Below are positions 45,001 through 48,000 of a stretch of 64,000 bases of DNA, piece by piece; position 1 is the stretch's first letter; each line of letters begins with the position of its first letter. This DNA is from an uncultured Aliarcobacter sp. (GTDB taxonomy: Bacteria; Campylobacterota; Campylobacteria; Campylobacterales; Arcobacteraceae), in assembly GCA_963664305.2 (NCBI GenBank), contig CAXXLV010000001.1, forward strand, positions 1-64,000, given 5' to 3'. The position numbers were made by a program.

Positions 45001-48000
45001 TGAGTTACTTCAAGTTTTTTTGGTTCAGTATTAGTTGCAGCATTAGAAGTTAATGCAATAGCTGCAACAACAGAAAACGAAACTAACACTTTTTTAGTTA
45101 AATTCATAATCTAATTCCTTTTGTTAATTTTAATATTAATTATCATAATGAATTAAATCAAAAAAAAACTTTATCCTCTCTTAAAGTGATAATTATTATC
45201 ATAAATATTTAGAATATACTTTTTAAATTATTTATAATATCTTTTGTTTTCTCATCTTTTATATTTTTATCTAGAACTTTATTTAATTTTTCTTCTATTT
45301 TATCTCTATTTTTTTCTATCTCATTTTTTAATAATTCTTTAGTATCTAAAGAGATATTTGGTTTTTTCATATCACCTTTTAATGTAATTAAAAAACTACT
45401 AGTTTTAATTTGAGTATTTAATTTTGCATCAATTAAATTTTTCTCAAAATCAAGTAATGCATCTGTTGTATTTATTTGTGTATTTGGACTTTGCATATTT
45501 AGATTTGATATAACTTGTTTTTCATTTATATTACTATCAATTTTAACTGTTTCATATATCTCTTTTGTTAAATCGAATTTTGCTAGTTGACTTACAATAT
45601 TTGAATAATCATTTGGTAAAAAATGTCCATTTAAAAGATTTGCTTTTAATTTTCCTTTTTTTGTCAATAATTCATATTCTAAATTTACATTTGCTTTTGA
45701 ATCAAATATCTCTGGTTTATTCATTCTATATAATAACTCTTTCATATTTGCGTCATCTAATTTCAAGTTAAAAATGTCATCTTTTAAATTAAAATCCAAT
45801 TTTCCACCAGCAAAATTTGAATTTCCAGTTAAGAAAAGAATATTATCCACAGATTTAACCTCACCTTTTAAATCTATATCTCCTCTTAAATCTGTATTTG
45901 TTAAACCTTTGATTTTTTCTAAAGCTAATATATTTAAAAAATAATCACTAGTAAATGATTTATTATCTAGATTATAAACTGCTTTTTCTAAATTTAATTT
46001 TCCAATATTTGATAAAACATCAATTTTAGAAATAGCTTGATTTGGAACTAATGAAGTATTTATTGTTGAATCAAAAGTTATTACATCACTCAACTCTTGT
46101 TTATAAACTGCATTTACAACTTCATTTATGATTTTTGCATTTGATATTTTTGAAACTATTAATCCATCTAATTTTTCTAATGAACTGTTTTTAACATCAG
46201 CATTTACATTAAAATCACCCGTTAAATAAACTGGCTCATTTAACATATGTAAAACTTTTTCTATTTTTGCATTTTCGATTTTAAAATTAATATTTTGAGC
46301 AATAGAATCTTTTAAATCTAATTTATATGTAGTTGTACTTTCAAAAATATTTGAAGTTCCATCAATTGATACAACAGAATTTTCCATAGAAACTTTACCT
46401 ATATTTGAAAATTCTCCATTTAATTTTCTTCCTAAAATCCCCTCTAATCTATTTAAATTTTTTATATCAACTTTATAGTCACTAAAAAGTTTTTTATTGT
46501 TTAAATCTATTATTGTTTTATCTAAGTAAATATCTGCAATAGATGTTAATAATTCAGATTTTACTTCTGCCCTATTTCCAAATAAAGAAGCATTTATATC
46601 CCCTTGGAAATTTATTGGTGAAGATAAAGTTTGATTGAACTCTTTATTAAAAATATCATTATTCAATATACCTTTTGATAGATTTGCTACAAAAACTCCA
46701 TCTAAATTGTTTACATCAATATTTTTAATATTTGCGTTAATGTTTAAATATCCTTTTAAATATTGTGGTTTATTTGCTAAAGCTAATAGTTCTTCAATTT
46801 TTCCATCTTTTAAATCTATTTGAACATTGTTTACTTCAAACTTATTTAGATTTATATAATATTTTGTTTGACTACTTGCAAGATTTGAGAATCCTTGGAT
46901 AATTGCATCTTGATTATTTCCTTTAAAAATACCATTTGTATAAAATTTTCCTTTTAAATCTTGATGCATTAAATTTTTTAATGTAGATAAATCATCAATT
47001 TTTATATCATATTTTAAATCTACACTCTTTTTAAAAATTGATAAATCACCAGAAATATTGATATAAGAATCTTCATTAATAACGGCATTAAAATCTATAG
47101 ATTTTAGGGTTAATATAAAATTATTTACTTTTAACTTCACTTTTTCTTGTTCATTATTTACTTTACTTTCTATATATGAAGAAATGATGCTATTTCCGTA
47201 TTTAGTAAATAAAGTTCCATATATTGAACCAATAATCAAAACTATTAAAATTGTTAATGAGAAAAATAATTTTTGCATAAGCACAACCCTTTTGATAAAG
47301 TGAGAAAATTATAACAAATTGTTTATAAAAATAACTATTTAAAATCGCTTTAGCTAATTTTTAGTTTTCTTTCTTTATAATCTCGTCCACAAAGTGTTAA
47401 GTAGGGATACGCAAGCCGAACAGACTTTGGAAATAAAAATTTATATAAGGAAAAAGAAATGAAAAAAATCGTTCTTTTAATGCTAGCTATCGCTGGTTTT
47501 GCATTCGCTGCTGATGAAGCTGTTGTAAATGAAACTTTAAAAGCATACTCTGTAGTTGCTGCTGGAATTGGATTAGGTCTTGCTGCACTTGGTGGTGCTA
47601 TTGGTATGGGTAATACTGCTGCTGCAACTATTGCTGGTACTGCTAGAAACCCAGGTTTAGGTGGAAAATTAATGACAACTATGTTCATTGCTTTAGCGAT
47701 GATCGAAGCACAAGTTATTTATGCACTTGTTGTTGCTATGATTGCATTATATGCAAATCCATTTTTAGGGTAATCTTTAAATCTACAGATTTAATAAAAC
47801 TCGAAAGGTCAAGAAGTTTTCTTCTTGACCTTTTTTTTTGTCTATTTGACACCTTTTTGACACTCTTTAAAAGTAAAATTCCTTTTTAAATATAAAAAGG
47901 AAAAAAGTTGAAAAGCACTACTATAAAAAATAAACTTCTTATTTTGACTCTTCTTAGTATTTCTATCTCATTTATTATATTAGGATTTTATAACACTTAT

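Follow-up and report, generated by a model that had tools for sequence, protein, structure and literature searches.

The ATP synthase genes of Campylobacterota are split over three loci, so the many-copy c ring cannot be balanced by operon order. How these bacteria achieve the balance appears to be undescribed in the literature searched. We examined atpE, the gene for subunit c, in the genome of an uncultured Aliarcobacter sp., in a window consisting of the first 64,000 nt of contig CAXXLV010000001.1, and asked what kind of element occupies its leader and how that element might act.

The atpE locus and its transcript

In this genome atpE is the sole c-subunit gene, and subunit a and the F1 operon are encoded at other loci. 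A first-pass annotation had placed a 40-nt leader element before the stand-alone gene. We recovered it at 47390-47429 on the + strand, between a TATAAT box (47376-47381) and the Shine-Dalgarno (SD) sequence of the c-subunit ORF. The features of the locus are listed below.

45209..47284, - strand: divergent upstream ORF of 691 aa with an N-terminal hydrophobic stretch (ORF call; without NCBIfam match)
47376..47381, + strand: sigma-70 -10 box TATAAT of the atpE promoter (sequence)
47382..47389, + strand: C-rich discriminator and predicted transcription start, at about 47387-47389 (start inferred from C. jejuni spacing)
47390..47395, + strand: 5' arm of stem P1 (covaries with 47424-47429)
47396..47399, + strand: 5' side of the internal loop; 47399 faces 47421 as a non-Watson-Crick pair (pair counts in 212 leaders)
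47400..47403, + strand: AGUA strand of the putative bulged-G module (conservation in leaders)
47404..47406, + strand: 5' strand of stem P2, GGG (pairing in the 69-row alignment)
47407..47414, + strand: apical loop of the short form, where P3/P4 are inserted in long-form leaders (leader comparison)
47415..47417, + strand: 3' strand of P2, GCC (leader comparison)
47418..47423, + strand: GAA strand of the putative bulged-G module and 3' side of the internal loop (GAA conservation in distinct leaders)
47424..47429, + strand: 3' arm of P1 (covaries with the 5' arm)
47430..47446, + strand: A/U-rich spacer ahead of the ribosome site (composition across leaders)
47447..47452, + strand: SD sequence of atpE (sequence)
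47459..47773, + strand: atpE, F0 subunit c, 104 aa (NCBIfam PRK08482, 175 bits against a cut-off of 135)
47803..47834, + strand: intrinsic-terminator-like hairpin closing the atpE transcript; it scores on the minus strand too (terminator prediction)

From the divergent upstream gene, the terminator-like hairpin 3' of atpE and the placement of the other atp genes elsewhere, we infer that atpE has its own short transcript. In Campylobacter jejuni, the primary start site of Cj0936 (atpE) lies 6 nt past TATAAT and the leader is 84 nt long (PMC3656092, supplement rows), which places the motif inside the RNA. In 191 of 212 distinct leaders, AGUA follows the end of a -10-like hexamer by 14-25 nt, and in 190 P1 starts no more than 5 nt from the predicted transcription start. 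Transcriptome contigs, which cannot show starts, include one that spans atpE and ends at the predicted start and two that end inside the motif. Downstream of the element the A/U-rich spacer has a median A+U of 0.89, and the distance from GAA to the SD is at least 15 nt (median 24).

The 6 nt that follow the -10 box (47382-47387 in the window) have a mean GC of 0.57 across leaders, in genomes that are A/T-rich. A GC-rich region at this position is a trait of promoters under stringent control, and initiation at atpE may also be ppGpp-regulated. In computed folds, for which there was no control set, the SD pairs with the first pyrimidine-rich codons of atpE (47447-47480 in the window) with a probability >0.3 in 75 of 196 cases.

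A covarying RNA stem

P1 is a real RNA pairing. In a 69-row alignment, 82% of its cells pair, whereas shuffles reach 65% and slid registers no more than 59%, and each of the 8 lower-helix pairs shows two-sided changes. An atpE tree of 140 rows has 67 branches that change both partners, of which 55 retain a standard pair, whereas six shifted-register controls keep pairing in only 1-11 of 25-39 co-changes. The stem covariation described in the first-pass annotation thus holds both in the alignment and on the tree. Of the 212 leaders, 183 conform to the main register, and in these G-U combinations outnumber A-C by 62 to 11. By nearest-neighbour energy the hairpin in the window is no more stable than shuffled sequences (folding z-score -0.61). 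The element is almost certainly a conserved RNA structure.

A putative bulged-G module

The loop, whose structure had earlier been left unassigned, resolves into a putative bulged-G module and a stem of 2-3 bp (P2). AGUA occurs in 207 and GAA in 209 of the 212 distinct leaders; the leader parser demanded GUA and GA, and 73 of 80 leaders fetched via atpE carry the module independently of that demand. Judging from sequence, AGUA facing GAA would form a bulged-G (sarcin-ricin-type) module in three dimensions. Above it, the first pair of P2 is G-C in 69 of 69 rows and the second is G-C in 67 and A-U in 2, the latter from a single lineage, and the third position is G-U or G-G.

The pair below the module is mostly A-C (133 of the 212 leaders), followed by U-C (25), G-A (20), A-A (17) and U-A (8). 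With C-C and C-A these combinations make up 209 of the 212, and the other 3 have U-U. G-C was never observed (0/212), against 15.3 expected if the two positions were independent. On the tree, G-A needs 11 changes, and none of 9 co-changes keeps a standard pair. The flanking pair of a sarcin-ricin module is limited to allowed combinations of the sheared family, and, going by its letters and by that set, the pattern here is that of a sheared pair. For sarcin motifs in general, tWH and tHS pairs are described as co-occurring (PMC2673412, on general make-up). The lack of G-C at the flanking pair, together with the folding z-score of only -0.61, suggests that selection keeps the shape of the hairpin and not its stability.

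In the Aliarcobacter genome, the pattern AGUA-2bp-loop-GAA has 14 matches. Eight fall in two sense 23S rRNA hairpins, which we take to be H13 and H23, four at an antisense rRNA site, and the remainder at one other site and in the atpE leader. Like the leader, the bulged-G hairpins of 23S rRNA have AGUA and GAA strands topped by two G-C pairs and flanked by a non-Watson-Crick pair. They differ in that the leader element is part of an mRNA and has another loop, one that varies; the likeness is one of sequence, and the module is not a family in itself. The element also differs from ribosomal-protein leaders, as every complete locus examined has it before atpE and not before a ribosomal protein gene. 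With the two 23S hairpins it would have the module and a 2-bp stem in common, but not the loops.

Mini, short and long loops

In length the apical loop varies between 5 and about 64 nt. Of the 212 distinct leaders, 189 carry either the short form (8 nt) or the mini form (5-8 nt), and the other 23 are long. Mini forms keep about 11 fixed letters. In the long form, two hairpins (P3 and P4, an insert of roughly 45 nt) follow the first A of the loop and the 3' loop letters are kept, so that a three-way junction results. The loop had been called almost invariant, but its centre is replaced in both the mini and the long forms. The fixed part of the element is, on present comparisons, a predicted bulged-G module on two G-C pairs over a covarying stem, and not the 18-mer by which the first-pass annotation had defined its core. 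The first-pass annotation had noted the long form in some Arcobacteraceae; it occurs in three families (f1, f7 and f4), taken from named tree neighbours to be Arcobacteraceae, Sulfurimonadaceae and Sulfurovaceae.

Pairing in the long form extends to 93.8% of cells, with two-sided changes at 14 of 24 pairs and at most 45% in slid controls, scored on the same alignment from which the structure was derived. A metagenome scan for this form returned 120 matches, 115 of them with the whole element. The P3 arm is 10 nt in 122 and 11 nt in 10 of 132 distinct inserts, where the search pattern allowed 8-13 nt, and P4 spans 16-32 nt. The P3 loop is UUUA or UUCA in 22 genome-derived inserts; in the metagenome set it was preset by the search pattern. 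That both the arm length and the loop of P3 are fixed suggests that it docks onto the module.

Long-form leaders are intermingled with short-form ones on the atpE tree, with 14 changes, at least 5 of them forced by well-supported branches (for example, between the sisters L008 and L434); the tree rests on a 300-nt gene and its bootstrap was not settled. Such alternation could arise from recombination that exchanges alleles or from exact deletions that recur. We rejected the possibility that the long insert is a mobile repeat, as the long model found one site per genome in 59 of 150 genomes and none in the other 91. Some mini loops (L182, L190, L191, L176-L179) have a long-form 5' junction start and a long-form 3' junction end, as if derived by deletion. 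An alternative GUA/UAC hairpin around GGGA was discarded, being broken in ACAC and mini loops.

Sulfurovaceae-type leaders (L033, L052, L079, L084, L136, L172-L174, L185, L243, L391-L472) contain a second element between P1 and the SD. It has a 4-bp stem (AGUC/GACU or GGUC/GACC), and the last three letters of its loop often complement three letters 4-5 nt downstream (GGG/CCC, AGA/UCU, CGG/CCG, AGG/CCU). This would be a possible H-type pseudoknot adjoining the ribosome site; there are 36 distinct pattern matches, some of them mismatched.

Distribution and losses

The 18-mer was first reported from 125 of 201 genomes. Its linkage to atpE stands, and the rate found here is lower (with up to 2 mismatches, 93 of 301 genomes and 33 of 57 genera) because genera with variant loops are well represented in our sample and part of the 2-mismatch matches are due to chance. 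Among the exact GTDB matches listed (at least 119), 110 lie ahead of a c-subunit start and 2 are truncated by contig ends; the other 7 lack the stem and are due to chance. Leaders were also fetched via atpE from genomes missed by the 18-mer. The core AGUA-G(G/A)G-loop-(U/G)(C/U)C-GA was found in 67 of the first 70 such leaders, from genomes lacking the 18-mer at atpE, and in 6 of 10 further leaders that were missed by the covariance model or are kin of a loss (73/80 overall).

The covariance model rests on 69 leaders of the short and mini forms, chosen by eye among 111 diverse members of the 189 distinct ones. At E<=0.05 it identified the element in 133 of 150 Campylobacterales genomes, in 132 of them once. 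The element is single-copy, as had been claimed, and the 18-mer has a single occurrence in the window, where chance would give 0.02. The model gave no second copy in the Aliarcobacter genome, where the next match has E 5.2, and no copy at five subunit-a loci (best 13 bits). Direct inspection of the 17 genomes that it missed identified the core in 12 and showed the other 5 to be without it. True losses occurred in at least three lineages (G058, G039, G062 and G098; G077 and G184; G292). The motif precedes atpE in every complete locus examined.

Described earlier as phylum-wide, the element is established across Campylobacterales as GTDB draws this group, and a wider range is not, all 301 sampled genomes being from one order. 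Matches outside the order, in 66 genomes assigned to other phyla, numbered 0 of 61 genomes in the phylum of G301 and 0 of 5 others, a weak negative from a search that had no positive control and lay outside Desulfurellia and Aquificota. Viral sequences yielded no element in the 80 pattern matches scored with the model, among at least 120. A looser motif pattern matches all genomes many times and is uninformative.

How the leader might act

We favor, at about an even chance of being correct and by analogy with known systems, a function as a protein-recognised 5' cap that sets the stability or translation of c-subunit mRNA. The weak P1, the non-canonical internal loop, the bulged-G module and the 2-3 bp stem would fold at the extreme 5' end of the atpE mRNA. 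A conserved cellular protein would recognise the bulged-G face, as proteins do with the same module in rRNA. The bound hairpin may then shield the 5' end from RNase J, aid 30S loading on the A/U-rich spacer, or both. The result would be the output level of subunit c, of which each enzyme requires many copies and whose gene is transcribed separately from the rest of the atp set. Candidate partners include a ribosomal or translation protein and an unassembled ATP synthase subunit.

In favor of a protein-recognised cap, the conserved letters coincide with those of the three-dimensional module, and the c-subunit mRNA carries the element at its 5' end in cells that have a 5'-3' exonuclease gene of the RNase J family. 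The loop tolerates shrinkage to 5 nt or an insert of roughly 45 nt, which fits the reading of one RNA face. The exonuclease gene family, presumably RNase J, is present in 5 of 5 genomes tested. L25 and KhpA/B are also present in all 5, of which three lack the motif, so these proteins and RNase J are neither implicated nor excluded. Several observations speak against such a cap. In at least three lineages ATP synthase is produced although the motif is missing, and no partner emerged from the candidates compared (CsrA, L25, KhpA/B and RNase J). The fixed arm and invariant loop of the long form resemble a self-docking fold that would suit an aptamer equally. The compensatory change in P2 comes from a single lineage, and the likeness to rRNA is that of a common module with differing loops.

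The first-pass annotation had offered a riboswitch or a protein-binding RNA. A structured cis-acting leader RNA is upheld, and protein binding fits better than a classical riboswitch, given the absence of a terminator or anti-SD platform and an apical loop that varies from 5 to about 64 nt. We regard as rather unlikely a new riboswitch class that senses an ion, pH or an adenine or guanine nucleotide and acts via mRNA decay or ribosome standby, with the long form as the full aptamer and the short and mini forms as a minimal core. The well-paired three-way junction of the long form, with P3 arms of 10-11 nt in 132 of 132 inserts beside a P4 of variable length, speaks for such a class, and in other bacteria ATP synthase genes are associated with Na+ riboswitches and ATPC RNAs. 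However, a pairing probability >0.3 between the SD and the core is reached in only 7 of 196 leaders, and between the SD and the 5' arm in only 5 (computed folds, with an energy model that ignores non-canonical pairs). A run of at least 5 U follows in only 42 of 212 leaders, with no consistent U tract, the mini forms are reduced to their few fixed letters, and no Rfam riboswitch matches. The ion-binding E-A-Q segment of subunit c is identical in 140 of 140 tree rows, whatever the RNA form, and subunit c lacks the Na+ signature. We think it neither more nor less likely that the element is a ligand-free structural cap, in which a rigid bulged-G hairpin would slow 5' attack and keep the leader off the SD for constitutively high c-subunit output. 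The location at the 5' end at near-fixed promoter spacing, the lack of a switch platform, the dispensability of the motif in some lineages and the presence of the RNase J family would all agree with this. Yet better protection and easier evolution would be expected of a plain G-C hairpin, G-C beside the module is never seen, and a fold no more stable than shuffles has kept its sequence across the order.

The near-constant distance from the -10 box would also suit a double-stranded DNA operator just 3' of the promoter, with the hairpin incidental, and the first-pass annotation had allowed for a DNA-level site. The tree-aware covariation of P1, its bias towards G-U over A-C and the insertion of whole covarying hairpins amid conserved letters counter this reading, which we consider highly improbable. 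Hardly credible is a CsrA/RsmA site with GGA in a small alternative hairpin: the short form does have GGA flanked by GUA/UAC, but several mini loops lack GGA, and we rejected a CsrA target because csrA is missing from the Aliarcobacter genome and from whole motif-keeping families (f1, 0/6; f4, 0/3; f6, 0/2; f8, 0/6). Cj0936/atpE was not found in the supplement of a CsrA paper (PMC4894983), which may omit the full table. Readings other than those discussed are very unlikely to apply. Cutting across these mechanisms is the tentative possibility that rotor supply is under a new bacterial control with this leader as its receiver, which would be either a riboswitch class for ion, pH or energy nucleotide or an assembly-feedback operator to which a free ATP synthase subunit binds. 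Swapping of the three-way-junction insert would then retune the leader between close relatives.

Comparison with known systems

A dedicated element at the 5' end of a c-subunit mRNA is also found in the PPR10/MTHI1 sites, which serve as our working model for a protein-recognised cap. Those sites are single-stranded and are read by eukaryotic helical-repeat proteins, whereas the atpE element is a folded RNA with a putative partner. In chloroplasts, PPR10 and MTHI1 are described as binding the c-subunit (atpH) 5' UTR, where they block 5'-3' decay and aid translation (PMC8635915, relevant passages). Assembly feedback of the chloroplast CES type likewise matches subunits of unequal stoichiometry from separate loci; in the sections consulted, it is shown in Chlamydomonas for ATPC, atpB and atpA and not for a bacterial c subunit (PMC12449265).

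Among RNAs at ATP synthase genes, the ATPC motif is a candidate cis-regulatory RNA directly before the c-subunit gene, with a three-stem junction that resembles only the long form (Weinberg 2007, PMC1950547, motif description). It is cyanobacterial and lies within an operon, between the a and c genes, while atpE here stands alone and its leader has no Rfam match. The Na+-I (DUF1646) riboswitch is also a small leader RNA that sometimes precedes ATP synthase genes (White 2022, PMC9337991, in part). It has two stems, a terminator platform and many Na+-related contexts, whereas the atpE element has one gene context, no platform that we could find and no model match. The purD motif, or 6S RNA, of Campylobacterota has an equal taxonomic range and was first proposed as a cis-regulator. 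Its sequence is unrelated and it proved to be an independent transcript (PMC3847290, section on this RNA), while the atpE element lies inside an mRNA leader. A truncated Rfam purD motif (L184:1-113, - strand) was noted just upstream of one atpE, on the opposite strand, at 33.8 bits, below the cut-off of 41.

As the first-pass annotation had stated, the element is absent from Rfam. In Rfam 15, whose families include ATPC, DUF1646, nhaA and c-di-AMP, no model matches it at E<=10 except two of about 12 bits, and none matches over 20 other long, mini or short loci. The Arcobacter table in PMC6429828 has 14 entries, none at atpE, and the main texts of PMC11109978 and PMC5737381, in the portions available, do not describe the element. 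PMC8632094, a study of C. fetus and A. nitrofigilis, has entries HRC-11-1 and HRC-11-2, with gene contexts in further supplementary files. In the part of the PMC8040213 supplement covered, one candidate is near a c-subunit family in 3 of 37 instances; it is mostly integrase-linked and is not the atpE motif. We found no earlier description in a search to which subscription journals and some supplements were external, and there is only a small chance that the element has already been listed somewhere. It represents a genuine, order-wide family of cis-acting RNA at atpE, outside every family tested and apparently undescribed, and should form a new Rfam family whatever its mechanism.

According to a 2013 transcriptome study, C. 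jejuni leaders hold no metabolite-sensing riboswitch besides TPP (PMC3847290, pertinent section). If the riboswitch reading were true, the element would be a new class in a group thought to have almost no riboswitches; if the assembly-feedback reading were true, it would be a bacterial counterpart of chloroplast CES. The leader offers a testable handle on post-transcriptional control of energy metabolism, being order-wide and single-copy, with a predicted three-dimensional module, natural losses and two interchangeable alleles. The bacteria concerned are Campylobacter, Helicobacter, Arcobacter and their relatives, among them vent chemolithotrophs and colonisers of gut and stomach.

Additional observations

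Subunit c has a basic-hydrophobic N-terminal extension (47459-47512 in the window) that resembles a cleavable signal peptide, in lineages that keep the motif and in those that have lost it alike. Genomes G071, G165 and G263 have two c-subunit matches each. csrA is present in 128 of 150 genomes and was not found in the Aliarcobacter genome or in families f1, f4, f6 and f8. A complete motif with a Campylobacterales-type c-subunit start (L074) occurs on a 1.6-kb contig in an Amylibacter bin, where it was probably misbinned.
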